From positions 128,001 through 192,000 of the IMG/VR virus record IMGVR_UViG_3300009031_000368: a stretch of DNA of 64,000 nt. The stretch is one strand, 5' to 3'. The stretch comes from a virus. Taxonomy: Duplodnaviria > Caudoviricetes. A program made the position numbers and the translations under genes. Of the stretch, positions 6,869 to 61,631 are shown piece by piece. Every line of letters begins with the position of its first letter. Positions within the stretch are counted from its first letter, which is position 1. The notes under the pieces are model-generated. The model searched no databases and was not told the DNA's origin. It saw nothing but the letters and a program-made list of their open reading frames with translations.

Positions 6869-6907
6869 AACATACTGCACAACGAATGACTTGTCAAGAG
6901 AAATTTT
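6869..6907 (-). promoter_or_regulatory. strong early-type promoter
   Basis: AAAATTTCTC-TTGACA-N17-TATGTT. Confidence 0.75.
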
Positions 6908-6910
6908 GAA

Positions 6911-7153: not shown

Positions 7154-7196
7154 GGCACATTCCTCCATCTCATGATTGATTGAAACATGTAGCAGC

Positions 7197-7235
7197 ATGA
7201 TAGCATACGGCTGATATTTTGTCAAGAACTTTTTG
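7197..7235 (-). promoter_or_regulatory. strong early-type promoter
   Basis: AAAAAGTTC-TTGACA-N17-TATCAT. Confidence 0.75.
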
Positions 7236-7237
7236 GA

Positions 7238-7627: not shown

Positions 7628-8004
7628 TTCCTTGAATTACTAAAATCAACAGCAATACGTGACTGACTCTGCTTTTGCTTAAGAGAATCTAGTGAATCTA
7701 TGATATCTGTCATGGCCGATTGTCTGTACACGGACAACATCTTCACGTCTGCTAATGATTCATAGCTGTAGTAAAAACACAAGAATTGTTCGGTAGCCAA
7801 TTTGGTTTCTAATGCAATTGGTGAATGATGTATATGAAATCGCCATGGACCATAAGTAACGATTCTGTACAAAGAATACGAACTGGGCATTCTACTCATT
7901 TTGCTAAAATTTACCGTTCCACCTACTGCATACGTTTTAAACCGTGATGAGGGCAAGTCGGCAGCCATTGTTGCGCCTACAAAATCATAGTCGGCATCTG
8001 TCAT
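7621..8004 (-). CDS. hypothetical protein (paralog of 8023-8433)
   Basis: shared TYGPWRF, LAT..FL.FYY.YE..ADV, SAM.DII.SL. Confidence 0.7.
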   Translation of the reverse strand: MTDADYDFVGATMAADLPSSRFKTYAVGGTVNFSKMSRMPSSYSLYRIVTYGPWRFHIHHSPIALETKLATEQFLCFYYSYESLADVKMLSVYRQSAMTDIIDSLDSLKQKQSQSRIAVDFSNSRKC

Positions 8005-8874: not shown

Positions 8875-10229
8875 CAGCCTTCAGCCTCCTCAGTATCAAT
8901 ATAGTCATCCTTCTGCTTGATGATTCCTTCAAGCACGCGAAAAATATAGCTTTTTTCTTTGTAGAACGAAACGGTTCCGTCCGGTTGTTCGACTCTGATG
9001 ACGACTCCTTCGTGTGGATGCCTGGCGTCTAGACCAGATGGGATTGCATCGGTTCCAGATTCACCATTGACCAATCGTTCTACCTTTGCTCGAAGCGCCT
9101 CCTCGTTGCCATCATACATAAACGATTCAATATGACGCACCGTTTCAACACCAAGCTCGCCGGATCGGCCGACAACCTGATACCATGAAAGATCAACCTC
9201 ATTACCGTCTTCAGCAACACGGGTGATGCGGTAAACCGTTAGCCTGGTTTGTGGCCCATTGGTGCCATCTGAACTACAGCCATAACTGTACTCAAAACAT
9301 TTACCAAACCGCTTTTCAATCTTCTTATCCTTCAATCCAGTGGTGTCATGACGGCCCATAATCGGCGCACCGGTATCGGTGTAACCGCAAAGCTCATAGT
9401 AGATGGCTTCGCCGGGATGAAGCGTTATATCTTTTACCGCATTGAATCGGAAGTTCTCGGTGCCGTAATACGAATTACCGGTTCGCCGTTCCAACACGAC
9501 GCGACGGCTACCATTCAGATATCGCCACGGATTGCGCTCAACTGATAACCCAACACGCCGTAACAGCCAATCACAACAACCGGCCAGACGTTTACGCCAG
9601 CCTGAAAGTTGAACAAGATCACGAACTTGTGCGGTACGCCCAGAAGTACCATGAAGCTTCTCGGTAATATGGATGATTGAACCAACCGGAATCTTGCTGG
9701 CGAAATACCTGAACTGTTGTGTTTCAATGTGTTCATGAAACATGACATTCTTTTTACGTGCAACCGGAGTAGACGCTGACTTCTTTGCACGCACGGTTGC
9801 CGGTGTTTCATATTTGGTGCAAACCACATGACCGTTCACGGTATCGATTAGATCTCCTTCTTTGAAGGAAGAAATATCACAGCCAGTCCAATCAAGCATT
9901 TCGACCGGACACCAAAAGCCATCCGATTTTACACCTTTCAGCTTAATGGCACGCACACGGCGGTTTGGTTCAAACATGCCACCGGCCGGCTTTCCGGTTT
10001 CATCTTTCCGTTTAACCAGATCCTTATTGGATGCAAAGGTTTCAGACAGGACACCATCACTGGGGAAGAATACGCCCAGTGTGCCATCCTGTGTTTCCTT
10101 GCCGACAATCACTTGATTGCCAAGACAATTCCCGATGGCCAACCGCTCAATCTTTTCGACAGAGCCATCCGGTTTAACGATATCCGGGAATGGACGTACA
10201 TGGATACTTGTTACGATTGCTTGATACAT
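8874..10229 (-). CDS. ATP-dependent RNA ligase, DRB0094/Rnl family
   Basis: N-terminal OB-like module (..QVIVGK..GTLGVFFPSDG); motif I TEKLHGTS, III YYELCG, IV EGVVIR, V YKEKS. Confidence 0.85.
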   Translation of the reverse strand: MYQAIVTSIHVRPFPDIVKPDGSVEKIERLAIGNCLGNQVIVGKETQDGTLGVFFPSDGVLSETFASNKDLVKRKDETGKPAGGMFEPNRRVRAIKLKGVKSDGFWCPVEMLDWTGCDISSFKEGDLIDTVNGHVVCTKYETPATVRAKKSASTPVARKKNVMFHEHIETQQFRYFASKIPVGSIIHITEKLHGTSGRTAQVRDLVQLSGWRKRLAGCCDWLLRRVGLSVERNPWRYLNGSRRVVLERRTGNSYYGTENFRFNAVKDITLHPGEAIYYELCGYTDTGAPIMGRHDTTGLKDKKIEKRFGKCFEYSYGCSSDGTNGPQTRLTVYRITRVAEDGNEVDLSWYQVVGRSGELGVETVRHIESFMYDGNEEALRAKVERLVNGESGTDAIPSGLDARHPHEGVVIRVEQPDGTVSFYKEKSYIFRVLEGIIKQKDDYIDTEEAEG

Positions 10230-10243
10230 AACGGACTCCTTAA

Positions 10244-10492
10244 TTACCACCAATAATAGATACGGACATTATCCAATGATTCATTTGGAAAGAAACCGGC
10301 GAGCAATTGCCGCAACTGTTTATACTCTGTTCTGTCGGCGCCAGGCAAATATAGGTATTCACCATTATGAGGCTCACATGCCTCTACGTATTGTGTCAAT
10401 TGCCGCAACTCTTCTTGAGTTTTATCCGATTCATCCAAAAATCTGTCTAGTTCAATATAATCAATTTCTTTTATGGTTTTAACTTTAAACAT
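10244..10492 (-). CDS. hypothetical protein
   Basis: 82-aa ORF. Confidence 0.6.
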   Translation of the reverse strand: MFKVKTIKEIDYIELDRFLDESDKTQEELRQLTQYVEACEPHNGEYLYLPGADRTEYKQLRQLLAGFFPNESLDNVRIYYWW

Positions 10493-10500
10493 GAATCACC

Positions 10501-10899
10501 CTAATCGCACAGGTTGAAATGTTTGGGCGCGTTCTTGATAAATGACAGGATGTCGCTATAGATGTATCCATTACCATCTGGTCCAATTGCCTGAATTGTC
10601 ATTATGCGCTTGGTATCATACTGTTGATATTTGTTTTCAAAATGGCCAGCATGAAAAGATTCCAAACTTCTAAAGCCGGATGTTCTTTTGTTGTAGCCAT
10701 CTGAACCGTCAACATGTTTGTAATGCTCACGGACGTCAACATTCATATCTTGAAGCTTTTCCAGCAGACAGTTCGCAACTTCTACCACCTTCGTCTGTGT
10801 GGTGTGAAACAAGCGTGTTGCGTTAGTGTATTGTTCGTGCATCTGCTTTGAACAAGCTTGCGAGTCATTGAGCTGTTCCAATAATTGATTAACGTCCAT
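10501..10899 (-). CDS. hypothetical protein
   Basis: TAATG-coupled ORF. Confidence 0.6.
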   Translation of the reverse strand: MDVNQLLEQLNDSQACSKQMHEQYTNATRLFHTTQTKVVEVANCLLEKLQDMNVDVREHYKHVDGSDGYNKRTSGFRSLESFHAGHFENKYQQYDTKRIMTIQAIGPDGNGYIYSDILSFIKNAPKHFNLCD

Positions 10900-46462: not shown

Positions 46463-48403
46463 TTACCGGATCGGGCAACTTCCGCCCGCACATTCTTCAG
46501 TTTCAATCCATCCTTCTGTTGTCAATGGATGATTATAGTTAATTGCTCGATTCATGTCAACGAACGTATGTTCATCGATTGATTCATATGGTGGTTGCTG
46601 ATATCCGTGGTCGCTTGGCAGGCAACTGGTAGACTTGAGCAATGGCACATACCGGCGCAGACAGTCGGCCAGTTCATCGATGTTGTTTTTATCAAACGTA
46701 ATGGTTTGACTTACCGCATTATCTGCCCAACTGGTTTGAACAGCTAGTTGGCGTGCGAACTGGTTTTCGACAGAATCATTCTTAACCGTGACTCGTGCAA
46801 CCGATTGCATGGGGAAACTGAATACTAGCGTGTGGCCAGTTTTATCATACACACATGGCTCATATGTTAATCCGGCTTCCTTAAATGCACCAACCATTGG
46901 ATCATTGTCGGCCAACCTGACGCGACGAATGTAATACCGGTCGAATGCCGCATGGTTGCCAGGCGACGACCCGCAAAGCAAACTTATGGTGCCACTTGGC
47001 TTCACCGTAGTCTTTGTAATCGGCCGGTTAACACCAAGCTCATCGGCATAATGGTCTGCGCAATCAATTACATGATCTCGCCATGACACTAGCTGTTCGT
47101 TCGTCCAGCTAAAATCACACAACCCACCAAGAGCAACGCCAATCCTCATATTCTGTTTACCGACCAAATCTGAAACAGGATCTATTAATGCCGGCAACCG
47201 CTGACGCATCGCATACCTGGTAGCAAGTGTCAGTCGCCGTGTGGCCGATATGGCGCCAACCCTAAGTGCTTGAAAAACCTCAGCTAAATTGCACGCCTCG
47301 CCATCCCATAGCGATTGTTCGCCGCACGGATTAAATCCCGTTGCGAATGGATCAGTCTTCCATACATTGACCATGTTTACGATACCAGGTTCTCCAAACA
47401 GTGCCATATCGTTTGCAACACTATACCAATCAAATGATTGAATCTGTTCTTCACTTGTAAACATTAAGCTGTTATTGGATGTATGTCTGTGAGATAATAC
47501 TTTTGCCAGGTCTTTTTTTGCATTTCTAAAGTCCATATCGTACGGATGCCCCAATATCAGCAAAGAACTCCTGCGCACGTTACCTGATTTGATACAGAAA
47601 CCAATGTGGTTCGTGATATCCAGGCACTCAACAGAATTAAGTTTTCTGCCATGCGCACCATCCACAATCTGCCAAATCTCCATCAACATTCTAACAAGTG
47701 GTCCCGGGCCGCATGCCACGCCTCCAAACGTTTTAATGACAGACCCGCGTTTGCGAATTCTACTGACATCGATCTCAATATGTTCACGTCGATATGCAGC
47801 ATGCAATACCATTTGCAATGCTTCCACCCATCCTTCACGAGAGTCCGGCACGATGAATCTATGCTTTTGCATATACCCAATAGACTTGCGCTCCTTTTCA
47901 ATCTCATAAACTGTATCTATGACTTCTTTATAGTCTGCATGTCTCTCATCACATACGATATCAAGAAATGCAAACGGCTTATCACGTTTGCTGGAGACTA
48001 CAGGCATTGTGTCAATCTTCGCAAGACTAACTCCAACACCACCGCCGAGCATCAGTCTATCTGCAACCCAGCACCAATCATCAGGCTTAGAAATTTGTAT
48101 ATTCCAGCAGTTGAACGCCGCATCCGGAACCATTCCCTTAACGCCTCCTGTCCATAATCCACGACCCGGTGGTAATGCCTGCATGGTCCAAAAACAGTCA
48201 AACAGTTGTTTGGCTTCATCGATGGTGCAACGTGGATCTAGATTACAGTTTCCTTCAACCACTCGCCTGATGGTATCGGTCCATGTTTCTCCATCACGAC
48301 AATATTTGGTCAAATATGTGGCGCGGGCCAACAGGTTCGGAAAGCAATCTCCTTTAATGTAGTATGGTGCAAGGAAGTCATAATCTAGTTCGATTCTCTT
48401 CAT
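46463..48403 (-). CDS. nrdJ: class II (adenosylcobalamin-dependent) ribonucleotide reductase, monomeric RTPR type
   Basis: ETW..TI.RVV.G, LPPGRGLW, FNC, DSREGW, GGVACGPGPL, NVRRS, NPCGEQ..CNL, TTVKPSGT, C-terminal CAGGSCPIR. Confidence 0.93.
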   Translation of the reverse strand: MKRIELDYDFLAPYYIKGDCFPNLLARATYLTKYCRDGETWTDTIRRVVEGNCNLDPRCTIDEAKQLFDCFWTMQALPPGRGLWTGGVKGMVPDAAFNCWNIQISKPDDWCWVADRLMLGGGVGVSLAKIDTMPVVSSKRDKPFAFLDIVCDERHADYKEVIDTVYEIEKERKSIGYMQKHRFIVPDSREGWVEALQMVLHAAYRREHIEIDVSRIRKRGSVIKTFGGVACGPGPLVRMLMEIWQIVDGAHGRKLNSVECLDITNHIGFCIKSGNVRRSSLLILGHPYDMDFRNAKKDLAKVLSHRHTSNNSLMFTSEEQIQSFDWYSVANDMALFGEPGIVNMVNVWKTDPFATGFNPCGEQSLWDGEACNLAEVFQALRVGAISATRRLTLATRYAMRQRLPALIDPVSDLVGKQNMRIGVALGGLCDFSWTNEQLVSWRDHVIDCADHYADELGVNRPITKTTVKPSGTISLLCGSSPGNHAAFDRYYIRRVRLADNDPMVGAFKEAGLTYEPCVYDKTGHTLVFSFPMQSVARVTVKNDSVENQFARQLAVQTSWADNAVSQTITFDKNNIDELADCLRRYVPLLKSTSCLPSDHGYQQPPYESIDEHTFVDMNRAINYNHPLTTEGWIETEECAGGSCPIR

Positions 48404-50742: not shown

Positions 50743-51030
50743 CTATCCGAATAGACTTGCAAGGAAGCCTTCAACGGTGTCGCAAAATCCAGCCGGCCAG
50801 TTGTCAATCCTACCATCCTGATCGATCTTGCCAATCAGTTCGCCGTTGAATTCAACAACTACGTCGGACAATCTGTTTTCTTTGACCAACACGCGAACCG
50901 CATATACGACGTTTTCTGTCGACGTATCGATGCGTTCTACCGTGTCGATCAGCTGATAGGCTGCAAACATTGATGCAAGATCTGAATACGCCTTACCGGT
51001 TCCATCGTTGCAGTAATTGATAACCTTCAC
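50743..51030 (-). CDS. DUF3696-like stand-alone protein (paralog of 30552-30908)
   Basis: STEN...AVRVLVKE...VEFNGE..KIDQDGRIDNWPAGFCD. Confidence 0.55.
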   Translation of the reverse strand: MKVINYCNDGTGKAYSDLASMFAAYQLIDTVERIDTSTENVVYAVRVLVKENRLSDVVVEFNGELIGKIDQDGRIDNWPAGFCDTVEGFLASLFG

Positions 51031-51033
51031 ACA

Positions 51034-51291
51034 TTACTCCGCGCGGCTTGCCGTGAAAGCCAGCATTGATTTCTTAAATTCCAAATCCATCAAGGGATTG
51101 TCAGCGGGTATGTATTCGCCACTCCCTTCGTCGCCATCCTGGTATACATACATAAGGACAGATTCGTCGCGGAACACATAGTACAACTTATTGTATCCAT
51201 TTCTGACGATGGAGGTACTGAAGCATGCAAATTGCATGGCGTATCGTTCAGACTCCGTTGCCTCAGAATAGATAATGGCTTGAGTTTTCAT
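51034..51291 (-). CDS. hypothetical protein
   Basis: 85-aa ORF behind promoter. Confidence 0.6.
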   Translation of the reverse strand: MKTQAIIYSEATESERYAMQFACFSTSIVRNGYNKLYYVFRDESVLMYVYQDGDEGSGEYIPADNPLMDLEFKKSMLAFTASRAE

Positions 51292-51336
51292 GAATCATTT
51301 CCTTGTTTGATGTTTTGTAATTTAAAAACTACAAAC

Positions 51337-51375
51337 AAGATATCATGGGCAGGCAGGTTTGTCAAGAGGAAATTT
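51337..51375 (-). promoter_or_regulatory. strong early-type promoter
   Basis: AAATTTCCTC-TTGACA-N17-TATCTT. Confidence 0.8.
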
Positions 51376-51390
51376 TAAGGATGGATCGAT

Positions 51391-51606
51391 TTATCTGGTT
51401 AGCGCCAGAGCTCCACGCCACCAGGCACGTCCGGCCATATAGGAAAGGTCGGCGATCAGGAAGTAACCGGCATATGCCAACGCCAGATAACCATATGTCA
51501 CATTTTCAGACAGCTGCGCAATTGATTGCATGCCGGTTATCGACAGCGCGAGCGCGATAAAGCCGGCAATAATCCAAAACATGAAGGCAATCAGTCTTCC
51601 ATACAT
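51391..51606 (-). CDS. small two-TM membrane protein
   Basis: two hydrophobic helices; AAGGA RBS. Confidence 0.6.
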   Translation of the reverse strand: MYGRLIAFMFWIIAGFIALALSITGMQSIAQLSENVTYGYLALAYAGYFLIADLSYMAGRAWWRGALALTR

Positions 51607-51618
51607 GGTGTCTGTCCT

Positions 51619-52014
51619 TTATTGAGTGAGTCTGATTCTAATCGAACCATCTGGTTCAACCGTCCTAGCCTTTTCCTTCCACCCCTTGGTCACCTTGCCA
51701 ACATAGCGCTCCGTGTATTTCATGGTTAGCTGCTTCTGAACATCTGGCGCGAACTTCCTGTCACGGTCAAAATCGCTGATATGGGCATAACAGGTTCCGT
51801 TAAAAAACTGCCATCCGGCATCATTGGATGCTTTTTCGATATACTGACGGCGCACAATCACATGTGCTTTTTGTGGCCTTACCTTCCCGTGGTAATCAAA
51901 AAGATGCTGCGCGTCCTTATGCACTTCCACGTTGGTAAATCCAATATCGCGGAGCGCGTCAGCCAAACATTCAGCGTCACTGTAATTTACCTCAAATACC
52001 TCGTATGCGCTCAT
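51619..52014 (-). CDS. DUF1257 (Ycf35-like) protein
   Basis: D.ECL..AL..IG...VEVH...L.DY.G..R.Q.A.V.VRR..I..ASND.G. Confidence 0.8.
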   Translation of the reverse strand: MSAYEVFEVNYSDAECLADALRDIGFTNVEVHKDAQHLFDYHGKVRPQKAHVIVRRQYIEKASNDAGWQFFNGTCYAHISDFDRDRKFAPDVQKQLTMKYTERYVGKVTKGWKEKARTVEPDGSIRIRLTQ

Positions 52015-52196
52015 ACCTTCACCTTTTCAGACTTATCTTTATCAAAGAATTCCGGTTTTCTATATATTTTCTTTGACGGGCCTATCCGGGAAAACATTGC
52101 TTCAATTTCGGCCAAACAAGTAGTTCCTGAACCGTTTAGCATTTCTACCTTGATGGTGCCATCTGGCTGAATGATGATGTCTAGCTCTTTTTTCAT
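52011..52196 (-). CDS. DUF2997 protein
   Basis: I.I.PDG.IKVE..NG.G..C.......KPEF. Confidence 0.8.
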   Translation of the reverse strand: MKKELDIIIQPDGTIKVEMLNGSGTTCLAEIEAMFSRIGPSKKIYRKPEFFDKDKSEKVKV

Positions 52197-52399
52197 CACA
52201 ATTCCCTGACCACAATACCGATCCAATCCTGATCGTTATCGATATTCCAATCATGTGTCATCGGCGCATCCGCAACCATGTAGCTAGTGGTTTCGCCATC
52301 AATCGTAAGCTTTAGCGTGTCGCCCGGTTGTGGCAATAAATCAACATCTGCGTGACGGTAAAGTTCAGAACCGTCTCCTGTAAGAAGTACAACGTTCAT
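52196..52399 (-). CDS. hypothetical protein
   Basis: 67-aa ORF, TGATG-coupled to DUF2997 gene. Confidence 0.6.
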   Translation of the reverse strand: MNVVLLTGDGSELYRHADVDLLPQPGDTLKLTIDGETTSYMVADAPMTHDWNIDNDQDWIGIVVREL

Positions 52400-52429
52400 C
52401 CTATTTTCTCCAATTGAATTTCAAACATA

Positions 52430-53020
52430 TCATATGTCAAAATTTCCGTCGCGAAATCTAGACAATATTTCTTCCGAAGGGAAACCCATCAGCAACACTT
52501 CACCGCCGCGCACAATGACTTCGGTGTCATGGTGTTGCATATCGGAAAGTATGTGGCGTTCTGTTAGGAATATAAACTGCTGGTTCGTCGACCCGCGCAT
52601 CCAAGAATTTTCAGGGAGGCGCTTGACATAACGACCGTCCACCACTATATCGACAAGCTGAGCCGTTTCAAGCAAATTCCACACGCCACCAGTATTTTTC
52701 CTAAGCCACTCAATCCTGCGTCCCGTATACAGAATTATGCTGTCAATTCCGGCAAGCCGCAAAACCTGTAAAAATACCGCAAGTTCTTCTATTTGGTCGG
52801 TGGGTTCTCCACCAGAAACAGTTACTCCGTCAATTTCCAATGTGGCTATATGGTTGGCCAATTGTTCAGGCTGGACATCGGTTACATTAGGACCAATTGT
52901 CGCGTGAGTGTGCTGTGAAAAACACCCATCGCATCCAAGCGAACAACCAGCTAGATGTATGACGGCACGTCGTCCAGGTCCATCGACGGTAGATGTTTCA
53001 ATATTGCCATAGATTTTCAT
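52430..53020 (-). CDS. radical SAM protein, NrdG/4Fe-4S single-cluster activase-like
   Basis: VDGPGRR, GCSLGCDGC (CxxxCxxC), SGGEP, YTG, DGRY, RGS.NQ. Confidence 0.9.
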   Translation of the reverse strand: MKIYGNIETSTVDGPGRRAVIHLAGCSLGCDGCFSQHTHATIGPNVTDVQPEQLANHIATLEIDGVTVSGGEPTDQIEELAVFLQVLRLAGIDSIILYTGRRIEWLRKNTGGVWNLLETAQLVDIVVDGRYVKRLPENSWMRGSTNQQFIFLTERHILSDMQHHDTEVIVRGGEVLLMGFPSEEILSRFRDGNFDI

Positions 53021-53041
53021 AGCGATTATCTATCACAACGG

Positions 53042-53731
53042 TTAACTAATGTAAGCAATGATTTCGTAATCGCCGCTGACTTGCATTTTATGCCATGTCA
53101 TCACCAGCATATGCTCAAGCGGCGTTATATTGTAGTAATCTTCTGTCGGCTGACGTTCCAGCTCAATTGTGATACGTCCATCATCAGGCTTGAATCGATA
53201 GCTGTCTGGTGACGATACAAAATTAATGCCATACTGTCGTAAAATATCCTCAGCCTGGTTGACGGCATCAATGACTCTTCCGAAGTATCTGTTCCCATCC
53301 ATGCCGGCCCGTACAAGTTTTGCCGTTAACATCTGTCGCTGATTTGGCTTAAGCTTTGTCGATGGATTGTTTCGTCTGACATTCTTTTCGTTATCCCAAT
53401 AGGCTTCTTTTAGAAAATCGACGGCGGTTTCAAGATAATTGACTGCTGATTCTTTCATACTGTTCCAAAGTCCAGATTGCTTTAAATAAGATGAATCGGT
53501 GTAAACCATATGGCCTTTCCATCGATGTGTTGCCAACACATCAGCCAGTTGCTGCTTTGTAAGTTCTATAACGTCGCCACCATTCGTTGCCGATTCACCG
53601 TTTCTTAACAGTTCTCCATTGTGCCATTCATACGATCTGTCTGGCAATACGGCAACATTGTATTGTTGCTTTTGTCCTGAACCTGTCTGTATGAAATCAA
53701 TAACGATAAATGCACGTTTAATTTTATCCAT
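53042..53731 (-). CDS. hypothetical protein
   Basis: GGAGG RBS at MDKIKR. Confidence 0.65.
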   Translation of the reverse strand: MDKIKRAFIVIDFIQTGSGQKQQYNVAVLPDRSYEWHNGELLRNGESATNGGDVIELTKQQLADVLATHRWKGHMVYTDSSYLKQSGLWNSMKESAVNYLETAVDFLKEAYWDNEKNVRRNNPSTKLKPNQRQMLTAKLVRAGMDGNRYFGRVIDAVNQAEDILRQYGINFVSSPDSYRFKPDDGRITIELERQPTEDYYNITPLEHMLVMTWHKMQVSGDYEIIAYIS

Positions 53732-53759
53732 AGATTGTCTATACCTCCATGGACCAATT

Positions 53760-55322
53760 CTATGCATCATAGATATTAAATGTATCAGGAGTCTCGCGTT
53801 CAACTATCGGTTGTTTGATTTCTCGATTAGCCATCACGGCTCTACCGGATTTTGCCCATCGGCGCAACATGTCAATCTCTTCTTTCATGGTTTTTGAAAG
53901 TGGAACCGTGCAATTGATTGCATCAATGACGTCCTGCTCAATCAGATCCCTGCCATGAAAATACGCTTCATACATGGCCGACTCGATAGCTTGTTCAATT
54001 TCTGCACCATTAAATCCATCAGTAAGCCGTGCCAAAATGTTTACATTAAATTGACTAACATCTCGGTTGCGCTTTTTGATGTGTATTCTAAATATCGATT
54101 CTCGTTCGTCATGTATAGGAAGGTCAACAAAGAATATTTCATCAAACCTGCCCTTGCGAAGCAATTCGGGCGGAAGTGCTGAAATATTATTGACGGTTCC
54201 AACAACAAATACGTGGCTGGTTCGTTCCTGTAGCCATGTAAGCAACTTACCTCTAATCCGCGTTGTGGTGCCATGACTTTCTTGACCGGATCCGCCACCA
54301 GCTAGCGCCTTCTCCATTTCATCAATAAACAAAACGGCCGGCGAGGCAGCTTCAACGACACGGATTGCCGCCGATACGTTGGCTTCCGATTGACCGACAT
54401 ACTGATTCATCAATGAACCAATATCTAGTCGCAATAACGGTAGCTCAAGCATATTGGCAATTGCCTTTGCCGTTAACGATTTGCCACATCCGGAAATTCC
54501 TGCCAGGATTACACCTTTGGGAGTCGATAAACCGAAATCAATGGCCTGTTGGCTGAAAGCACGTTGTCGACGTTCAAGCCAATGCTTCAGGTTGTCAAGA
54601 CCACCGACATCGCTTATTGAAACCATCGTATCGACATATTCCAATAGGCCGCTTTTCTTAACAATCTCTCGCTTTTGCTTTGCCACTTCGGTAGCTGCTC
54701 TGCCGTCTATGGTGCTAAATTCAACACGGCACATCGCAAGCGCGGTATCGAATTCATCTCTGGTTAGTCCAAGTCCCGATCTAACGATCTTATCGATATC
54801 ATCATCTGAAAGTTTATTCTTTGCGTTAAGTCTTTTGGCAATCGTCGTTATCCTGTCAGTCAAGACTTCGCGTGTCGGCATCGGCAATTCAATGACCTGC
54901 ATATCCTTTTCAAGTTCAACCGGCACGCTTTTTACTGGTTGTATGAGAATGATGGTTTTTAGATTTTTTGAATTCCGGAGCGCAAATGTTGCTTCACGAA
55001 GCGCGCGTATTGTTTCTTTTTCATCATGCATAAAAGGGTGAAAATCAAAGCCAACAAACAGTGCATCACCGACATGTTTTATCGCTTCAAAAACAAAACC
55101 AATGGCATCAACCTGTTCAACCTTGTCTTCGTTGACACCATACAACCCCTTTGATACAGACCATAACTTGATTCCTACCATACGAGGTTCGGCCTCAGCA
55201 GTCTTAGGTAGCGATAATCGTCTGGCCACTTCCCTTACATATTCGATGGCCCGGCGCTCTTCATGAGTCACGATTTGGATCAACGGACATTTGGCCATAA
55301 TTAGCTTTTCGAGGATTTCCAT
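53760..55322 (-). CDS. Ycf46-family AAA ATPase
   Basis: N-terminal T.EE.R, DFHPF; VGGLDNLK.WL; GISGCGKS; LFIDEMEK; LPPELLRKGRFDEIFFVDLP. Confidence 0.9.
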   Translation of the reverse strand: MEILEKLIMAKCPLIQIVTHEERRAIEYVREVARRLSLPKTAEAEPRMVGIKLWSVSKGLYGVNEDKVEQVDAIGFVFEAIKHVGDALFVGFDFHPFMHDEKETIRALREATFALRNSKNLKTIILIQPVKSVPVELEKDMQVIELPMPTREVLTDRITTIAKRLNAKNKLSDDDIDKIVRSGLGLTRDEFDTALAMCRVEFSTIDGRAATEVAKQKREIVKKSGLLEYVDTMVSISDVGGLDNLKHWLERRQRAFSQQAIDFGLSTPKGVILAGISGCGKSLTAKAIANMLELPLLRLDIGSLMNQYVGQSEANVSAAIRVVEAASPAVLFIDEMEKALAGGGSGQESHGTTTRIRGKLLTWLQERTSHVFVVGTVNNISALPPELLRKGRFDEIFFVDLPIHDERESIFRIHIKKRNRDVSQFNVNILARLTDGFNGAEIEQAIESAMYEAYFHGRDLIEQDVIDAINCTVPLSKTMKEEIDMLRRWAKSGRAVMANREIKQPIVERETPDTFNIYDA

Positions 55323-55522
55323 ATTTCTCTCCACTTTTGCGGCAACGGATTCTTAACAAAGCCATGATCCCATGTGTACCAACAGCCATCAATTACTTCC
55401 AATTCTTTGCCACAATGAAAGCAATTACAAACACTAAAACCATCGACCGGGCTGACTGGTGCTTCACATCTGCCGCCAATGTCACAACACGGTCGATCGG
55501 CATCACAACATACGTCACACAT
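55301..55522 (-). CDS. small Cys-rich protein
   Basis: GGAGG RBS; 8 Cys in 73 aa. Confidence 0.6.
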   Translation of the reverse strand: MCDVCCDADRPCCDIGGRCEAPVSPVDGFSVCNCFHCGKELEVIDGCWYTWDHGFVKNPLPQKWREIWKSSKS

Positions 55523-55919
55523 TTAATGCCTCCAAGGAATGTCTCATCCATACCAGTTGTGAAATCGATTTCGGCTCGCCGGGATATATGGCGTTATATC
55601 GATCGCGCACCATTACCCACTCTGTTGCGAAACTAGGTGGTATGATTAACGACATGTATTTCATATTGGCCCAATTGTATCCATGACGTCTGACTAAAAA
55701 TCTGTAACGTCGGATGTATTGTGATGCCGTCTGGCAACAACATTCTACATCGGTTGACACCATTAAATAGATATCTTTCCAATAACGTCTATCTCGTTTT
55801 AGCCAATCGATCGATTGCCTGTTGTTCAATAACCATTGCTGTAACCGCCGTTCCCGGTCATCGTAACTTGCCTGGCATTCCAAAACAAGACATCTAATGG
55901 TCCATTGGTTGGTAGTCAT
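55515..55919 (-). CDS. hypothetical protein
   Basis: 134-aa ORF. Confidence 0.55.
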   Translation of the reverse strand: MTTNQWTIRCLVLECQASYDDRERRLQQWLLNNRQSIDWLKRDRRYWKDIYLMVSTDVECCCQTASQYIRRYRFLVRRHGYNWANMKYMSLIIPPSFATEWVMVRDRYNAIYPGEPKSISQLVWMRHSLEALNV

Positions 55920-55924
55920 TTCAT

Positions 55925-56200
55925 CTACTCATCAAACATTTCAACGTTTTTTATCCACTCGATTCCAGCTTCATAAATGTCAAAATATGTTTCAACATAT
56001 GGCTCCCTTGTCCGCAATGTCGATCTCATAACATGTTTTGTTGATATCTCTGGTTGAACATCAACAAGTATTGTATGAAAACATCCCTTGCTAAAATTAG
56101 GACATACCCAATAGTAACGACCGTCACGCTGATTTAACTTTTGCGTCATACAGGCACGGCACTTGAAGCATATATGATCTCGATTTGTAGTTTTACTCAC
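55925..56200 (-). CDS. zinc-ribbon protein (topoisomerase C4/GRF-like)
   Basis: CFKC...M..K....G..YW.C.NF..GC; GTG start behind promoter. Confidence 0.55.
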   Translation of the reverse strand: MSKTTNRDHICFKCRACMTQKLNQRDGRYYWVCPNFSKGCFHTILVDVQPEISTKHVMRSTLRTREPYVETYFDIYEAGIEWIKNVEMFDE

Positions 56201-56243
56201 ATTTTCCGTCACTGCTGGAATTGTTACAATACAATTAAACGGT

Positions 56244-56272
56244 ATTATATCACAGACAACCTGAATTGACAA
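56244..56272 (-). promoter_or_regulatory. sigma70-type promoter heading the Ycf46 unit
   Basis: TTGTCA-N17-TATAAT with extended TG. Confidence 0.8.
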
Positions 56273-56292
56273 ACACTCACGGGAGTATGTTT

Positions 56293-56496
56293 ATGCTGAA
56301 AACCAGAAAAGAATTGTTAAATGCAATGGATCGAGTCCAGAAAGAGTATGACGTACCATTAATGATGTCACACATCTGGCTTTTGGTCGTATGCCTGATT
56401 GTTTCGTGTGGATTGATTTTTCTTGTGCTGGGTGGTAAAACAACCACTTCAAATCACGATTATGCCCCAAAACCCGACTATTGTGCAACCAATTAA
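56293..56496 (+). CDS. small single-TM protein
   Basis: GGGAG RBS; IWLLVVCLIVSCGLIFLVLGG. Confidence 0.6.
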   Translation: MLKTRKELLNAMDRVQKEYDVPLMMSHIWLLVVCLIVSCGLIFLVLGGKTTTSNHDYAPKPDYCATN

Positions 56497-59400
56497 TGTT
56501 TTCGTTTAGTAGATAGGAAACTCAAACAAAGCTGTAGGTTACTGTTGGTCTTAGCCGGCCTTCTTTTAACAAGTTGTTGTTCCAACGGATGGCAAGCTTC
56601 TATTGTCTTTTCTACTCCCGGCTCTAACTCGATAACTGTTGCCGGTTCATCGATTTGATAAAACACATTATCCTGAAGAGTATTGATCGTTGCATCGTCC
56701 GGATAATTTTCCACATCATCTTCAGTAAATTCAAATCCGTCAATATCTTCTACACCGCTAAGTTCTCCATTGATTGCCGCCAGTTCTCTCTTAACTTTGC
56801 GGTATTTGGCCATATGGTCCCACGGTTTACCAAGTTCTACCTTGATTGATTGTAACCGTACCGTTGACCGCGTGATGGAATCCGCAATTGATTGCATGTT
56901 CCCATCTAGAGATCTCAATTGATAATCGACACTCTGAATCGTTCCAATATCCGAATCCATTACTCCAGCTTTAAGTTGCGGACATCCATCACCGGTTATG
57001 ATGATTGAAGGCGGACTTAACGTATAGGTATGGCTAACATTATATCTTACATGCAGGTTGAATCCACGATACATTCCTATCTGGTAATCAAACATTCCCA
57101 CCTGTTTCTGGCTGACGATTTTTGACTTAGCAAGATTAACAAGTGTATTGATTCTTATGCATGCATCTTTTCTTTCGACGAACGGATCATATTCAACACT
57201 ACCTGTAGGCTTTAACAATTTGATTGAAAATTTATCCGTCGTGTTCTTATCGCGCACCGAGACAGCATGCTTTATTTCAGACAATTCCGTCTGGCATGAT
57301 TCAATAAAGCCAGGTAATGTCTTTTCCTCCCGCAACATCGAATATCTGGAATTGCGCCATGCGGTATACAGCTTATCAAGCTTTACCGATTCAACATCCA
57401 GCGCAACCTTTTTCATAATCCTTGGATCGCCGCTCGCAATCGCCTTAACCTGCGCGGCATTTAGAATCATATCGCCGACATCTTCAGCAGCCCTGATAGT
57501 TACGCTGCCTTGCATAATTTGTGAAATGAAGCGAGCCTTTGCTTCCAACAACTGCCACATGAACGCGCATGCTTTTGTCACGTATACGAATTTTAAAACC
57601 TCATTCAAGCCCCTATCCGATATGACTTCATTACCCTGTCGCAGCGCTCTTCCATCACACTGTTCAATATCGGTAGGCCGCCAAGGTGGAGTCAAATAAT
57701 GCAATGCGATAAGTCTTTTTTGCACATTCATTCCAACACCTTTTGATGTCGGAAGAATCATAATCCTAACGTCTCCTTCATTGAATTGACGGAACAATGC
57801 TTCCTTTCTGGCCGGAGTATTGTAGTCGTGGATAAATACAACGTGTTCCGATGGGATGCCGGCTCGAATCAGCTTTCGCTTAATGTCATAATACACGCCA
57901 TCCCTTATGAATAACTCTTCTTCCGTCAACACCTCACCGGATGGCTCTTCATCCAGGTTTATTTTTGATTTCGGAGTAGACAGGTCACAGAAGACAAGCT
58001 GCGTATAGCGCTTTTCGTCATATCGCCTATATACCTTAACGATTTGTTCAACCGCTTTGTTGATTTTATTGCCAGGATTTTCGCCAAGCGAAGGCTTTAC
58101 CAGCCTGACATCAAGTGCGGCCTTTCTTAGGTCGGTAGTGATCTTCAGGAAGTTGTCTTGTGTCGGATCTACCAGTTTATCCTTAATGTCATCGGCTCGT
58201 TGTGCAAACCATGACAGCAGTTCATTCAATTCGCCAGTATCTTCAACCTTTATAACGATGGGTTTATCACCATAAACGGTTGGTTCATTAAGCTTGAGTT
58301 GTTCCTTTGTTTTAACGTTCCATACTTGCCTGAGAATATGAACCAACTCTGGCAGGTTAAAGAATTTAGCCAAACGTTGCACCACTTCCCACTTTCCAGT
58401 AACCTTCATTTCGATGCTGGATACAACACTGGCGAAACATTTTACCCATGAATCAAATGTCTCTAGTCCGAGCTTCTTCAATAGATCAAATTGAAGATAC
58501 TTCATGACGGTGTAGATTTCGGCCATCGTATTTGCAATCGGCGTCGCGGTGGCAAAGAATACCCGCCCACCTGTTTTAAGCAGATATTGTGTCTTGATAA
58601 ACATATCAAAGGCACGATCCGATTCTGTCATCGATAGGCCGGCGATATTGCTCATATTGGATTCAAATCCCAAGTTTTTATGCTCATGGGATTCATCATT
58701 TACAATGACATCAATACCAAGGTCTTCAAAACACGGCATCATGTTGGCATTATCACGCTTAATGTCTGACTGCTTGTTCTTTAGCTTTACCTCTAATCGC
58801 TTAATCTTTTTTTCAATGCGCTTGGATGTGATTTTATCGATTTCACTGGTGCGGCTCCGGCTACGGTATCCAGACTTTGATTGCTCCTGTACCTCCGTCA
58901 ATTGTTTACGTAATGCATCGATCCGCTCATCAACATATCCGATAAATGTTTCATCCTTTAGTGGAATCATTTTCCATGCGGTGTGCGTAAAAATAGCTAT
59001 CACATTTTTACTGGTCGCGATACGGCTCAAGAATTCCGCCCGTTTATCCGGACTGAAGTTTACCTTGTCGGCAACCATCACGGGAATACCGGGATAAAGC
59101 TGCCGTACATACTCGCCCCACTGTTCCACAATATTGTTAGGAACCGTAATCGCACACTTCCTGGCCAACCCTAATCGAAGTAATTCGGCGCAAGTTATTG
59201 ATATTGAAGCGGTTTTGCCACTTCCAACTGAGTGCGCCAACATCATCGTTTTACTTTGCAAGCCTTGCCAAGCGGCATCTAGTTGATGAGGATATGGCGC
59301 AAGTTCAACGGTGTTGTTGGTAAATGGCAGGTATCGGCTAATTCCTGGAAGCGTTAGGTGACTTCCATCATATTCGCGCTCTCTGAACACATTATATGTT

Positions 59401-61631
59401 TCGTTGTAAATACTGACCAGCAATTCACTTCTACCGGCATCCTGCCAAATCCATTCAGTAAACTTGTCATGAATGTCTTGCAGCTTAGACTGCGCCAGCA
59501 GTGTCTCTTCTGAATTTGGAACGGACCTTCTATTGCCGTATTCATCTTCAACAACATCATAGACGGTCGGATTCCTAACGTTTAGCGCGTCTTCGATTAA
59601 ATCTAGTGCAGTCTTTCTGGATGTTCCCCACGTTTTGGTATTTTCAATCGAATAGTAGGATTGTTCCTGTGTGACGATCCATTCTGGTATCGACGGAATA
59701 AATCTGACATTGCCACAATACGATGGAATCAGCTCCTTTACGAAATCAGATATGTATTGTTCTGGAATCCAATTGGCTCCAAGTCTAACATGGATTTCGC
59801 CAGGGCCAACCGGTTCTGGCATAACTGAGGCCAGTGATTCAACGTTATAATTGAAACATTCATCCAGAACAGCTGCCGCTCTCGCCGCATTAAGCTTTTC
59901 AAGAATATTGCCAGACAGGTATTCATCGGCGGTAACATATTGTCGCTGCGGAGTAACGTATACGATGCCTTTCAGTGCTGACAATACATCGTCTATTGGT
60001 TTACACGTTGTTTCACATATCCAATCCATGTCAAGCCGGCCAAATCGATCCAGACAAGTCAACATTGCATGACGTGGTTCCGTTATCTGCTGAACTGATT
60101 CAACTTTTCTGACCGTATCCTCGTAAAAGATTGCCGCCTTGCTGCCGTCGTTATTTTCCAACGACTTGAGAAAAGGAGCCAGGCAGGTAACATCGATATC
60201 GCCACATCCTTTTAACTCAGATTGATTCTTTTTTGTTGAAATAAGACCATAACGGATGACAAATTCATCATAGAGACCGGACAATTCTGTTCTTAATCTG
60301 GCCGATTCCTCAGCTTCTCTTGTCCCTATAAGCGCTCTTGCCGTTTTGCTGATGTCGATCAATCTTTCAACACAATCATTAAACTGCTTTTTCTCTACAT
60401 TGGATTCACATTCAATAATGTGGCCTACAATCTCTTGACGCTCAACGATAATAACATCATGTGGTAATGTTTTTTTGATAGCATCCATCAATTGCTGTTC
60501 AAGAACAGCTCCTTGAATTGGTGTTACCGTATATTCGTTACTGCTATACATGCCTCGCGCGGTGGTGTGATTGCCTAATACGTTTTGCGGATTGTCACGA
60601 TAGTATTCGTTTACATACTGTGGGGTTTGGTATTGCCATCTGTCGTATGTATTGTTGTATTGTAATCCCTTGTTTAGGTTTATTTCAGGCGTATCGATCC
60701 AAACATGTCCTTCAACGATGCCAGGGAACCGCTTTTGCAGAAACAATATATCGGTTACCACACTGGTACCGGCATTCTTTTCAAATGCGTCATTGGGTAG
60801 CCTGAATGCGCCATGAAGCACACACTGTTCTGAAATATATTGCCTAGTTCGTTTATCGGTCGCGTCCATCGTATAATGCGATGTAATGACGACAATAAAT
60901 CCGCCAGGTGCCGTAAGGTTGATACTGTTGACGATATAGTAATTGTGTAGGTTCTTTTTAAGATGTTTGTCCTTAATGGTAGGATCATGGACATTTACAT
61001 CAGCAAACGGCACATTGGTAATGACGAGATCAAAGTAATTACTGTATGTATTGGTCTTTGTGTGATCGGTTCCATACTTACCGAATGTCTCAAATGCTTG
61101 ATTGAATACTTTGACATCACCATACAGATATTGAGTGATACCTGCCGCTATTGGTTCAAGATCAATGGCCGCTTTTATTCCACCGGTGTAAAGAGATTCC
61201 GGCATTGTGCCAAAAAAGTGACCGACGCCACATGCTGGTTCAAGATACCTTGCGCAATTGATTGCACCGATTCCAAGCTGTTCAGCACCAGCCCACATTG
61301 CCTTAATGACACCAATCGCCGTATAATGGGCATTGATGGAACTTCCGCGAAGCAGATTTATTTCTTCATCGGTGAGAAGTTCTTTAACTTCATCTATCGG
61401 CTGGCCCCATGTCGCGTATCCGCCATAGGTTGATTTGGGATACATTCTGTTGAATACCTGGGTATCGCCCCAACCGCAATACTTCAACAACGTTTGACGT
61501 TCCGATTCCGAAATATCGCCAAACGGACGACCTGTTTGCTGAAGCGTTTTGAGTAGTTTTGTTGCTTCCAGGTTGTTGATAAATTTTGTTGCGGCACCGC
61601 CAAGCTCAAGTTCTGTTTCAATCATCATCAA
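56493..61631 (-). CDS. DarB-like N6-adenine methyltransferase-SNF2 helicase fusion
   Basis: NAHYT, LEPACGVGHF, VITNVPF, AFRLPN.AF; LAHSVGSGKT, DESH, FATATPI.N, PWRP.DIEQ..GR..RQGN. Confidence 0.9.
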   Translation of the reverse strand: MMMIETELELGGAATKFINNLEATKLLKTLQQTGRPFGDISESERQTLLKYCGWGDTQVFNRMYPKSTYGGYATWGQPIDEVKELLTDEEINLLRGSSINAHYTAIGVIKAMWAGAEQLGIGAINCARYLEPACGVGHFFGTMPESLYTGGIKAAIDLEPIAAGITQYLYGDVKVFNQAFETFGKYGTDHTKTNTYSNYFDLVITNVPFADVNVHDPTIKDKHLKKNLHNYYIVNSINLTAPGGFIVVITSHYTMDATDKRTRQYISEQCVLHGAFRLPNDAFEKNAGTSVVTDILFLQKRFPGIVEGHVWIDTPEINLNKGLQYNNTYDRWQYQTPQYVNEYYRDNPQNVLGNHTTARGMYSSNEYTVTPIQGAVLEQQLMDAIKKTLPHDVIIVERQEIVGHIIECESNVEKKQFNDCVERLIDISKTARALIGTREAEESARLRTELSGLYDEFVIRYGLISTKKNQSELKGCGDIDVTCLAPFLKSLENNDGSKAAIFYEDTVRKVESVQQITEPRHAMLTCLDRFGRLDMDWICETTCKPIDDVLSALKGIVYVTPQRQYVTADEYLSGNILEKLNAARAAAVLDECFNYNVESLASVMPEPVGPGEIHVRLGANWIPEQYISDFVKELIPSYCGNVRFIPSIPEWIVTQEQSYYSIENTKTWGTSRKTALDLIEDALNVRNPTVYDVVEDEYGNRRSVPNSEETLLAQSKLQDIHDKFTEWIWQDAGRSELLVSIYNETYNVFREREYDGSHLTLPGISRYLPFTNNTVELAPYPHQLDAAWQGLQSKTMMLAHSVGSGKTASISITCAELLRLGLARKCAITVPNNIVEQWGEYVRQLYPGIPVMVADKVNFSPDKRAEFLSRIATSKNVIAIFTHTAWKMIPLKDETFIGYVDERIDALRKQLTEVQEQSKSGYRSRSRTSEIDKITSKRIEKKIKRLEVKLKNKQSDIKRDNANMMPCFEDLGIDVIVNDESHEHKNLGFESNMSNIAGLSMTESDRAFDMFIKTQYLLKTGGRVFFATATPIANTMAEIYTVMKYLQFDLLKKLGLETFDSWVKCFASVVSSIEMKVTGKWEVVQRLAKFFNLPELVHILRQVWNVKTKEQLKLNEPTVYGDKPIVIKVEDTGELNELLSWFAQRADDIKDKLVDPTQDNFLKITTDLRKAALDVRLVKPSLGENPGNKINKAVEQIVKVYRRYDEKRYTQLVFCDLSTPKSKINLDEEPSGEVLTEEELFIRDGVYYDIKRKLIRAGIPSEHVVFIHDYNTPARKEALFRQFNEGDVRIMILPTSKGVGMNVQKRLIALHYLTPPWRPTDIEQCDGRALRQGNEVISDRGLNEVLKFVYVTKACAFMWQLLEAKARFISQIMQGSVTIRAAEDVGDMILNAAQVKAIASGDPRIMKKVALDVESVKLDKLYTAWRNSRYSMLREEKTLPGFIESCQTELSEIKHAVSVRDKNTTDKFSIKLLKPTGSVEYDPFVERKDACIRINTLVNLAKSKIVSQKQVGMFDYQIGMYRGFNLHVRYNVSHTYTLSPPSIIITGDGCPQLKAGVMDSDIGTIQSVDYQLRSLDGNMQSIADSITRSTVRLQSIKVELGKPWDHMAKYRKVKRELAAINGELSGVEDIDGFEFTEDDVENYPDDATINTLQDNVFYQIDEPATVIELEPGVEKTIEACHPLEQQLVKRRPAKTNSNLQLCLSFLSTKRKH

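Follow-up and report, generated by a model that had tools for sequence, protein, structure and literature searches.

What is the role of a radical SAM enzyme that resembles an anaerobic ribonucleotide reductase activase, when it is encoded in a jumbo phage next to a Ycf46-type AAA+ ATPase and two small proteins of unknown function, and when no reductase to be activated is found? The question arises from a co-oriented gene run on the minus strand of the 64,000-nucleotide stretch of phage DNA analysed here (referred to as the window). In the initial annotation this run was interpreted as an uncharacterised ATP-driven remodelling or protein-modification system with an orphan radical SAM enzyme. 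The core of this interpretation is supported by our analysis, although remodelling or protein modification remains an inference. The features of the locus are listed in Table 1.

Table 1. Features of the phage gene run and its surroundings (positions are those of the window).
Feature	Coordinates	Strand	Length and sequence characteristics
Sigma-70-like promoter pattern	56244-56272	-	TTGTCA, 17 nt, TATAAT, with TG; 11 of 12 matches
Small Cys-rich ORF	55925-56272	-	CxxC...CPNFSKGC and an internal YFDIYEA; true start probably downstream of the promoter
ORF of unknown function	55515-55919	-	134 aa
Cys-rich ORF	55301-55522	-	73 aa; overlaps the start of the AAA gene
Ycf46-type AAA+ ATPase	53760-55334	-	Family-specific N-domain (about 1-235), classic-clade AAA module and lid; Walker A GISGCGKS, pore loop YVG, Walker B IDE
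Orphan protein	53042-53731	-	229 aa from the ATG at 53731; 253 aa from the upstream TTG (ORF 53042-53803)
NrdG-like radical SAM enzyme	52430-53020	-	CxxxCxxC at C26/C30/C33, GGEP, GSxNQ; C-terminal extension of about 45 aa
Orphan protein	52196-52399	-	67 aa; GGAG ribosome-binding site; stop overlaps the DUF2997 start (TGATG)
DUF2997 protein	52011-52196	-	61 aa from the ATG at 52196; G..G..C motif with Gly13 and Cys27
Divergent DUF1257 (Ycf35-like) protein	51619-52014	-	131 aa; start overlaps the DUF2997 stop (ATGA)
Small membrane protein	51391-51606	-	71 aa; one strong and one weaker TM segment
Next promoter-like site	51337-51365	-	TTGACA, 17 nt, TATCTT, with TG; 10 of 12 matches
Class II RNR	46463-48403		

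In order to verify the gene content, the translated ORFs were first compared with profile libraries. The AAA+ protein matched Pfam AAA (9e-29 at residues 275-404) and AAA_lid_3, as well as phrog_8638 (2.5e-129), and showed 42-43% identity over residues 6-497 to cyanobacterial AAA genes that sit next to DUF1257. Its AAA module (residues 237-470) aligned to the D2 domains of p97 and Cdc48, the best solved relatives, at E 1e-56 to 1e-58. The N-domain has no Pfam family; its nearest Atlas clusters are cyanobacterial and phage hypothetical proteins, and a 'ycf46' cluster appeared only as a weaker lead at 0.84. The radical SAM enzyme matched Fer4_12 at 6e-25, and the DUF2997 protein scored 26.7 bits with PF11211 against a gathering score of 24.1. 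Gly13 and Cys27 of the latter were invariant in an alignment of 123 sequences, and 136 of 145 small homologues carried the G..G..C motif. When modelled alone by AF2, DUF2997 gave a low-confidence fold (pLDDT 62.5) with predicted strands 4-9 and 15-20 and a predicted helix 25-38.

The initial annotation named the 131-aa protein as DUF1257, but it gave no Pfam DUF1257 hit (PF06868) even at E 10; it belongs to this family only by transitivity. A profile of phage proteins, seeded from three members with Pfam matches to PF06868 (two above the cut-off and one just below it) and built without the window protein, scored it 23.8 bits over its full length. Additionally, it has 41% and 38% identity to the corresponding members of the phage loci L071 and L073 (L numbers denote the loci compared here; L071 is a related 305-kb phage locus), and the L071 protein carries PF06868 in precomputed annotation. 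The N-terminal M-S start, the G-aromatic motif and the position next to DUF2997 are shared, S2, Y100 and G111 are nearly invariant, and the AF2 model had a pLDDT of 93.2.

Two further points of the initial annotation had to be amended. Three small ORFs between the promoter-like site and the AAA gene had not been mentioned, and translational coupling, which had been noticed only between the 67-aa gene and DUF2997, extends to the junction of DUF2997 and DUF1257; the last four genes of the run are translationally coupled or tightly packed. The two promoter-like sites of Table 1 are the best and joint second-best in the region 50800-56700, nevertheless the total number of such sites equals the shuffled expectation, so the transcription unit is plausible and not shown.

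The 229-aa, 67-aa and membrane-protein genes are not part of the conserved set. No Pfam, PHROG, NCBIfam or PADLOC family was found for the 229-aa protein, and its Atlas model had low confidence and gave no usable hit; its only homologue is a 151-aa protein at the same position in L071 (E 5e-16). The 67-aa protein matched no family and had no relative in any locus searched. In the place of the 71-aa membrane protein, L071 has an 82-aa two-TM protein without detectable sequence similarity. None of the three small upstream ORFs matched a family; the first has a homologue in L071 (2895-3260, E 3e-8), whereas the 134-aa ORF had no relatives in the loci searched.

Is the enzyme then an RNR activase? 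It shares GPGxR, CxxxCxxC, GGEP and GSxNQ with true NrdG, and C26/C30/C33, G70-G71-E72-P73 and S144/N146 are invariant or nearly so in the sub-family and shared with NrdD-linked NrdG. However, its score of 93.6 bits with the NrdG model TIGR02491 is below the curated cut-off of 126.1, and its C-terminal extension is absent from NrdD-linked NrdG. In a quick IQ-TREE analysis it was placed in a clade with the module-linked phage enzymes of L056, L071 and L073 (99% SH-aLRT), outside the NrdD-linked NrdG group (94%), although the module-linked enzymes were not cleanly monophyletic against NrdG; the long branches L004 and L052 grouped weakly with it and the deeper branching was unresolved. The PFL-type activases, which have the same chemistry class and N-terminal cluster motif, formed a separate clade at 100% support; these enzymes are longer and sit beside PFL-like glycyl-radical enzymes (46 loci, checked by Pfam).

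The initial annotation had stated that the only RNR in the window is class II and that no glycyl-radical partner is visible; the class II RNR was confirmed, and no NRDD (PF13597), Gly_radical (PF01228) or PFL-like (PF02901) match was found on the 231,714-base phage record, which is estimated to be 76% complete. NRDD was also absent from seven other viral records that carry the module, one of them 99% complete, and from five module-bearing bacterial genomes, including the 7.9-Mb genome of Actinomadura sediminis. Gly_radical was absent from the 99%-complete record and from the four of these bacterial genomes in which it was sought.

The linkage of the genes was examined next. Among 58 distinct viral AAA loci the radical SAM gene occurred in 6, and all 6 were among the 19 loci that have DUF1257 or DUF2997, while none of the other 39 had it (Fisher test, p about 7e-4). 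The four-gene set recurs in at least 8 phage loci; gene order differs in most of the phage loci (L001, L004, L024, L031, L052, L056, L071, L073 and the window), with 4-base overlaps between the radical SAM gene and DUF1257 or DUF2997. It was also found in about 10 bacterial loci, and occurs as tight operons in Chloroflexota, Actinomycetota, Verrucomicrobiota, Bacillota, a deltaproteobacterial MAG and unassigned metagenome contigs. In the bacterial locus L075 the order is DUF1257-DUF2997-rSAM-AAA, where the first two genes share a base and the other junctions overlap by 4 bases; L076 and L080 have AAA-Hsp70-like-DUF1257-DUF2997-rSAM, L074 and L092 have DUF1257-DUF2997-rSAM, and L081 to L084 and L091 also carry the set. 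DUF2997 is the commonest immediate neighbour of the radical SAM gene (about 12 of the loci listed). The bacterial sets are often joined by an Hsp70-like ATPase and HEAT-WD40 proteins; none was seen among the window's ORFs in 51391-56272, although an Hsp70-like gene is present in phage L031, and the window copy is a reduced form.

The neighbourhood of Ycf46 and DUF1257 in cyanobacteria, which the initial annotation cited as established, held in 4 of 4 cyanobacterial genomes tested, and DUF2997-DUF1257 adjacency was seen in the same number. The function of these clusters is likewise unknown (PMC7496141, PMC13683863, PMC4284462). In cyanobacteria, however, the AAA-DUF1257 pair and the DUF2997-DUF1257(-fed7) pair are usually separate loci without an attached radical SAM gene, whereas here all are in one run with the radical SAM enzyme, on a phage. 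We found no description of this four-component module.

The mechanism is not shown, and the following model is held with only moderate confidence. The AAA+ is proposed to be a hexameric, pore-loop-driven protein unfoldase or remodeller, and DUF1257 and DUF2997 to form an obligate heterodimer. The radical SAM enzyme, rather than activating a ribonucleotide reductase, might use the chemistry of glycyl-radical activases (reductive SAM cleavage, then H-atom abstraction from a residue in a protein loop) on a protein of the module itself. The most likely target is DUF2997, whose Gly-rich loop and invariant Cys sit at the start of its helix, and the AAA+ would present, reset or remove the modified pair. 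Besides the Cdc48-D2-like character of the ATPase, a translocase role is suggested by a C-terminal FtsH-type M41 protease domain in the same AAA family in L083 (by Pfam), and by length also in its close relative L084. The phage copy, in contrast to the Cdc48/p97/VAT and FtsH unfoldases, has a single AAA module behind its family-specific N-domain, no transmembrane anchor and no protease domain. The pairing of DUF1257 and DUF2997 is supported by their coupling, by the low-confidence fold of DUF2997 modelled alone and by natural fusions in L063 and L091.

It should be emphasized that no physical or biochemical evidence exists for any contact between these proteins. Most phage and cyanobacterial copies of the AAA, DUF1257 and DUF2997 genes lack the radical SAM gene; the enzyme is therefore an accessory to the core and not essential to it, and the conserved Gly and Cys of DUF2997 cannot exist only to serve it. 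Furthermore, no residue was found that is conserved only in the DUF2997 or DUF1257 proteins linked to a radical SAM gene. Since the phage record is incomplete and in L071 the module lies directly beside a class II RNR gene, a role in nucleotide metabolism is not excluded. A more far-reaching possibility, which we consider unlikely but which is not excluded, is that DUF2997, alone or with DUF1257, is a minimal protein substrate of a glycyl-radical-type activase: a roughly 60-residue carrier of a protein radical, or of a radical-installed modification on its G..G..C loop, which is loaded, reset or extracted by a dedicated Ycf46 AAA+. That would be a new class of radical SAM/protein-radical system.

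Among the alternatives, the one that survives best, though with low confidence, is that the radical SAM enzyme and, in cyanobacteria, the ferredoxin Fed7 are clients and not modifiers. In this case the AAA+, DUF1257 and DUF2997 would form a chaperone or repair set for oxygen-sensitive [4Fe-4S] proteins, with the reactive Cys of DUF2997 handling sulfur, metal or electrons, and the substrate of the enzyme would lie outside the module. Cyanobacteria keep a DUF2997-ycf35(DUF1257)-fed7 cluster (PMC4284462; the pairs were seen here), so the small pair is linked to two different [4Fe-4S] proteins, and the ycf46 operon is induced by oxidative, iron and light stress (PMC7496141, PMC13683863). The invariant Cys lies near the N-terminal end of the predicted helix, after a Gly-rich loop, which may be typical of reactive cysteines, and the core occurs widely without the enzyme. 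Nevertheless, this model explains neither why this particular NrdG-like sub-family, with its own C-terminal extension, is tied to the module, nor what the enzyme would do in genomes that lack any glycyl-radical enzyme, within the searches described above. No Fe-S assembly genes were seen in the neighbourhoods examined.

It is less likely that the module is part of a conflict system, either host immunity or phage counter-defence, in which HEAT-WD40 or STAND-TPR proteins of bacteria would sense, the Hsp70-like and AAA+ ATPases would switch and the radical SAM enzyme would be the effector, the phage copy being a decoy or an anti-defence derivative. Bacterial modules do sit in operons with HEAT-WD40 proteins (L075, L076, L080), and sister enzyme sub-families sit beside Hsp70-like plus NB-ARC-TPR proteins, WD40 proteins or ClpB-like AAA proteins, or are fused to FHA. 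This is the grammar of the NTPase-centred conflict systems (PMC7159879), and the carriers include filamentous or multicellular taxa (Actinomadura, Bellilinea and cyanobacteria). The FtsH-type ternary systems of Kaur, Burroughs, Iyer and Aravind (2020, PMC7159879) also combine an FtsH/Cdc48-type AAA+ bearing an extra N-terminal domain with a 'distinctive radical SAM' enzyme, proposed by those authors to modify a small protein encoded alongside, and with beta-propeller partners. However, those systems are defined by a MoxR AAA+ and a vWA protein, neither of which was found among the module proteins or the neighbours scanned, and the sections of that paper consulted do not mention DUF1257, DUF2997 or Ycf46. 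No PADLOC defence model matched except a generic AAA similarity to IetA, and ycf46 and ycf35 are housekeeping genes of cyanobacteria and plastids.

It is doubtful that the enzyme is an ordinary class III activase, with its NrdD on the missing quarter of the phage genome or in the host and its place beside the AAA/DUF genes incidental. The best named family is indeed NrdG (TIGR02491 1e-26; phrog_626 'anaerobic RNR small subunit' 1.9e-26), the enzyme falls in the same major branch of the tree as NrdG, and a class II RNR gene lies 4 kb away. On the other hand, besides the sub-threshold score, the extension, the recurrent linkage in many gene orders and the absence of NrdD from the module carriers searched, NrdD-linked phage NrdGs have NrdD immediately upstream, which is not the case here. 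Finally, although jumbo phage genomes pack many unrelated genes on one strand and promoter-like sites are at chance level, the view that these are merely unrelated neighbours is contradicted by the conserved co-occurrence across phages and several bacterial phyla, the overlapping stop and start codons and the natural fusions.

The ycf46 and ycf35 genes are conserved in cyanobacteria and in many algal plastids and have no known mechanism; papers up to 2026 still call the ycf46 operon a stress 'checkpoint' of unknown function (PMC13683863). The module described here joins these genes to an enzyme whose chemistry is well understood and can be assayed, in a compact phage form without the Hsp70 and WD40 extras, which makes a small, tractable set for reconstitution. 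If the radical SAM enzyme really acts on DUF2997 or DUF1257, that would define a new kind of activase-substrate pair outside the glycyl-radical enzymes, and a radical-carrying DUF2997 would give the first biochemical handle on ycf35 and ycf46. Such action on DUF2997 or DUF1257 would also explain the 'orphan NrdG' annotations in phages and bacteria that have no NrdD. In any case, the usual annotation of such genes as 'anaerobic ribonucleotide reductase activating protein' is probably wrong for this sub-family.

The gene run which the initial annotation had placed between two promoters was confirmed, and its proposal of an uncharacterised remodelling or protein-modification system with an orphan radical SAM enzyme was supported in its core. 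The sequence belongs to a 231,714-base IMG/VR virus record estimated 76% complete, which makes it a jumbo phage, and almost all genes in the window lie on the minus strand. Three small ORFs between the first promoter-like site and the AAA gene had not been mentioned in the initial annotation. The stop of the 67-aa gene overlaps the DUF2997 start (TGATG), and the DUF2997 stop overlaps the start of the 131-aa gene (ATGA). The number of promoter-like sites in the region equals the shuffled expectation, so the single transcription unit is plausible but it was not demonstrated. A nucleotide search of the region against GenBank phages gave no match. The giant protein directly upstream of the run has the same neighbour position in a 305-kb relative of this phage (L071), where it precedes the module, so the synteny extends beyond the module.

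Positions of the features in the window and of related features in other loci
Source	Position	Strand	Size	Feature
Window	56493-61631		1712 aa	SNF2-helicase/methylase-type giant protein directly upstream of the run
Window	56272-56244	minus		sigma-70-like site (11 of 12 matches, with TG)
Window	55925-56272	minus		Cys-rich small ORF with a homologue in a related phage
Window	55515-55919	minus		small ORF
Window	55301-55522	minus		Cys-rich small ORF
Window	53760-55334	minus	524 aa	Ycf46-type AAA+ ATPase
Window	53760-53790	minus		C-terminus of the AAA+ ATPase
Window	53042-53731	minus	229 aa	orphan protein
Window	52430-53020	minus	196 aa	radical SAM enzyme
Window	52430-52570	minus		C-terminal extension of the radical SAM enzyme
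Window	52430-52450	minus		C-terminus of the radical SAM enzyme
Window	52196-52399	minus	67 aa	orphan protein
Window	52011-52196	minus		DUF2997 protein
Window	51619-52014	minus	131 aa	divergent DUF1257 protein
Window	51619-51630	minus		region listed for the DUF1257 N-terminus
Window	51391-51606	minus	71 aa	hydrophobic protein
Window	51365-51337	minus		second promoter-like site
Window	50743-51030		95 aa	ORF just downstream of the run, matching the short C-terminal DUF3696 motif (E 6e-6)
Phage genome, G000:C1	39797-40528 and 67718-68611			two ORFs without a family listed with the C-terminal tails
L071, 305-kb related phage	1-2803		1750 aa	giant protein preceding the module
L071, 305-kb related phage	3272-5375		307 aa and 375 aa	AAA+ gene split into two ORFs (N-part and AAA part)
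L063, phage	7236-7751			DUF1257-DUF2997 fusion
L091, Brevibacillus panacihumi	10201-10833			DUF1257-DUF2997 fusion
L083, deltaproteobacterial module locus	5075-7216		about 710 aa	Ycf46-like AAA+ with C-terminal FtsH-type Peptidase_M41 domain
L084, close relative of L083	5117-7252		about 710 aa	Ycf46-like AAA+

The AAA+ protein has Pfam AAA and lid domains and matches phrog_8638 along its whole length. Its ATPase module is closest to the D2 domains of Cdc48/p97 among solved structures, and Walker A, the YVG pore loop and Walker B are intact as read from the sequence. It is 42-43% identical over residues 6-497 to cyanobacterial AAA genes that sit beside DUF1257, so the label Ycf46-type is justified. 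DUF2997 passes the threshold of Pfam. The 131-aa protein, labelled DUF1257 in the initial annotation, does not match Pfam DUF1257 even at E 10; nevertheless a profile grown from phage proteins with Pfam matches to PF06868, and built without the window protein, scores it 23.8 bits end to end, and it is also 41% identical to the equivalent protein of a related phage that carries PF06868. It is therefore a divergent DUF1257. The 229-aa and 67-aa proteins match no family, and the Atlas gave no usable hit for the former. The possibility that the 67-aa protein is a DUF2997 paralogue was rejected, since it has no profile match and lacks G..G..C.

The radical SAM enzyme has the Fer4_12 fold family, CxxxCxxC, GGEP and GSxNQ, and its best named relative is NrdG, at 93.6 bits against a cut-off of 126.1. 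In a quick tree of 97 related enzymes, in which the deeper order is unresolved, the PFL-type activases split off at 100% support, and the window enzyme sits in a 99% clade with three other phage enzymes (from the loci L056, L071 and L073), each beside the same AAA/DUF genes. Four phage NrdGs form their own group; three of them were checked to have nrdD immediately upstream, while the fourth (L162) lies beside a class Ia RNR instead. Furthermore, an alignment shows that the module-linked enzymes and their cousins share a C-terminal extension of about 45 residues that true NrdG lacks. This extension, the N-terminus of DUF2997 and the C-terminus of DUF1257 all contain an h-x-h-x-x-DG-x-h-x-h hairpin motif, which could be a shared strand-pairing element or merely a common hairpin. 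Sister sub-families of the NrdG-like enzyme (L087, L088, L090, L098; proteins P0177, P0179, P0173) have other partners: they sit beside an Hsp70-like protein plus NB-ARC-TPR (Rivularia, Tolypothrix), a WD40 protein or a ClpB-like AAA_2 protein, and others are fused to FHA, to an Hsp70 fragment or to a 350-aa helical region. These may be further undescribed systems.

No reductase to activate was found. NRDD, Gly_radical and PFL-like profiles find nothing on the phage record, as far as its estimated 76% completeness allows. NRDD is also absent from five bacterial genomes that carry the module (Actinomadura sediminis, Brevibacillus panacihumi, and Bellilinea, Pedosphaera and deltaproteobacterial MAGs), and likewise from seven other viral records, one of them 99% complete. 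Gly_radical was sought in four of those bacterial genomes and in the 99%-complete viral record, and it was found in none. The positive controls for each profile search gave hits.

The co-occurrence of these genes is conserved. Seventy viral loci encode a relative of the AAA+, and 58 of them are distinct. Within 6 kb, 19 have DUF1257 and/or DUF2997; six have the radical SAM gene, and all six are among those 19. The gene orders differ: rSAM-AAA-x-DUF2997, AAA-x-x-DUF2997-rSAM, rSAM-DUF1257-x-AAA-DUF2997, DUF1257-rSAM-Hsp70-like-AAA-DUF2997, AAA-DUF2997-rSAM-DUF1257 and AAA-rSAM-DUF1257. In about half of the viral loci (L003 and about 32 others) the Ycf46-like AAA+ lies inside a replication gene cluster (DnaC/IstB-like, DnaB, primase, Pol III alpha, SbcCD-like) with no DUF1257, DUF2997 or radical SAM gene nearby.

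A search of viral contigs with the single radical SAM protein gave no match. However, its nearest homologues in the protein collection lie in the 305-kb relative L071, with the order AAA (split)-151-aa homologue of the orphan-rSAM-DUF2997-DUF1257-two-TM protein-class II RNR, in another phage-like contig (L073), and in bacterial contigs with DUF1257-DUF2997-rSAM(-AAA) as overlapping genes. A scan of one genome per species found the same set in Bellilinea, Actinomadura, Spirillospora, two deltaproteobacterial MAGs, Brevibacillus and Pedosphaera. In bacteria an Hsp70/MreB-like ATPase and HEAT-WD40 proteins are often in the operon, and in the deltaproteobacterial locus L083 the protease domain makes the AAA+ a soluble AAA protease. 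DUF1257 and DUF2997 are naturally fused into a single chain in a phage and in Brevibacillus. Four of four cyanobacterial genomes have an AAA-DUF1257 pair and a separate DUF2997-DUF1257 pair, the latter being the published DUF2997-ycf35-fed7 cluster (PMC4284462).

DUF2997 is a large family, with 6,339 representative clusters at E 0.001 or better. It has an invariant Gly in a hairpin turn and an invariant Cys, which usually lies in a G..G..C motif (136 of 145 homologues). The model of DUF2997 alone puts the Cys near the N-terminal end of the single helix, but its confidence was low (pLDDT 62.5), too low to search with. DUF1257 models with high confidence as an alpha/beta domain (pLDDT 93), although it has no convincing structural relative: Foldseek found nothing at E 0.001 or better, and the VIA-align wide search gave a best Z of 5.7, inside the stated noise range, so no fold assignment was made. 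Profile searches of PDB sequences with DUF1257 and DUF2997 gave nothing meaningful, and a word-based search with the DUF1257 alignment found only 6 proteins. DUF1257 proteins start almost invariably with M-S-H, while the window protein and its phage clade (L071, L073 and the phage loci L056 and L052) start with M-S-A; a conserved extreme N-terminus suggests a functional terminus, for example metal binding or processing. Prediction of a complex of DUF1257, DUF2997 and the radical SAM enzyme, each with its own alignment, gave no verdict (score 0.00), which is not evidence either way.

The Ycf46-like AAA proteins end in conserved acidic-hydrophobic tails (...EDDL, ...xLD[I/L/F]) across most viral loci. 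The window AAA ends in FNIYDA and the window radical SAM enzyme in NFDI, and the latter is one of only three non-AAA ORFs out of 376 in the phage genome with such an ending; neither of the other two has a family. Bacterial HEAT-WD40 partners end in YDILL, FDIEG or FDIEIEG. This may be a docking peptide, but the radical SAM enzymes of the other module loci whose tails were read do not share the ending of the window enzyme, so it is left here as a lead.

The evidence shows a conserved module in which the radical SAM enzyme is an accessory that plugs into an AAA+/DUF1257/DUF2997 core, and is probably not a stray NrdG. Because the enzyme keeps the motifs of protein-directed activases, and no glycyl-radical enzyme was found in the records and genomes searched, the simplest reading is that its substrate is a module protein. 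We favour DUF2997, since it is the commonest immediate neighbour of the enzyme and since it carries conserved Gly and Cys residues in a loop. The AAA+ is most likely an unfoldase or remodeller acting on the pair or on its products. It should be emphasized that these last steps, the substrate and the role of the AAA+, are inference. The main rival is that the enzyme and, in cyanobacteria, ferredoxin Fed7 are [4Fe-4S] clients of a stress-induced chaperone set. A conflict-system role is suggested by the WD40, TPR-STAND and Hsp70 partners, but no PADLOC defence family matches apart from a generic AAA similarity to IetA.

None of the papers returned by full-text searches for DUF2997 or DUF1257 links them to a radical SAM enzyme, and Ycf46 papers up to October 2026 give no mechanism. 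The nearest described design is that of the FtsH-type ternary systems with a radical SAM effector, which requires MoxR and vWA, and these are absent here. The run is a reduced phage copy of a widespread module that we found described nowhere and whose function is unknown, and the annotation 'anaerobic RNR activase' is probably wrong for this sub-family.
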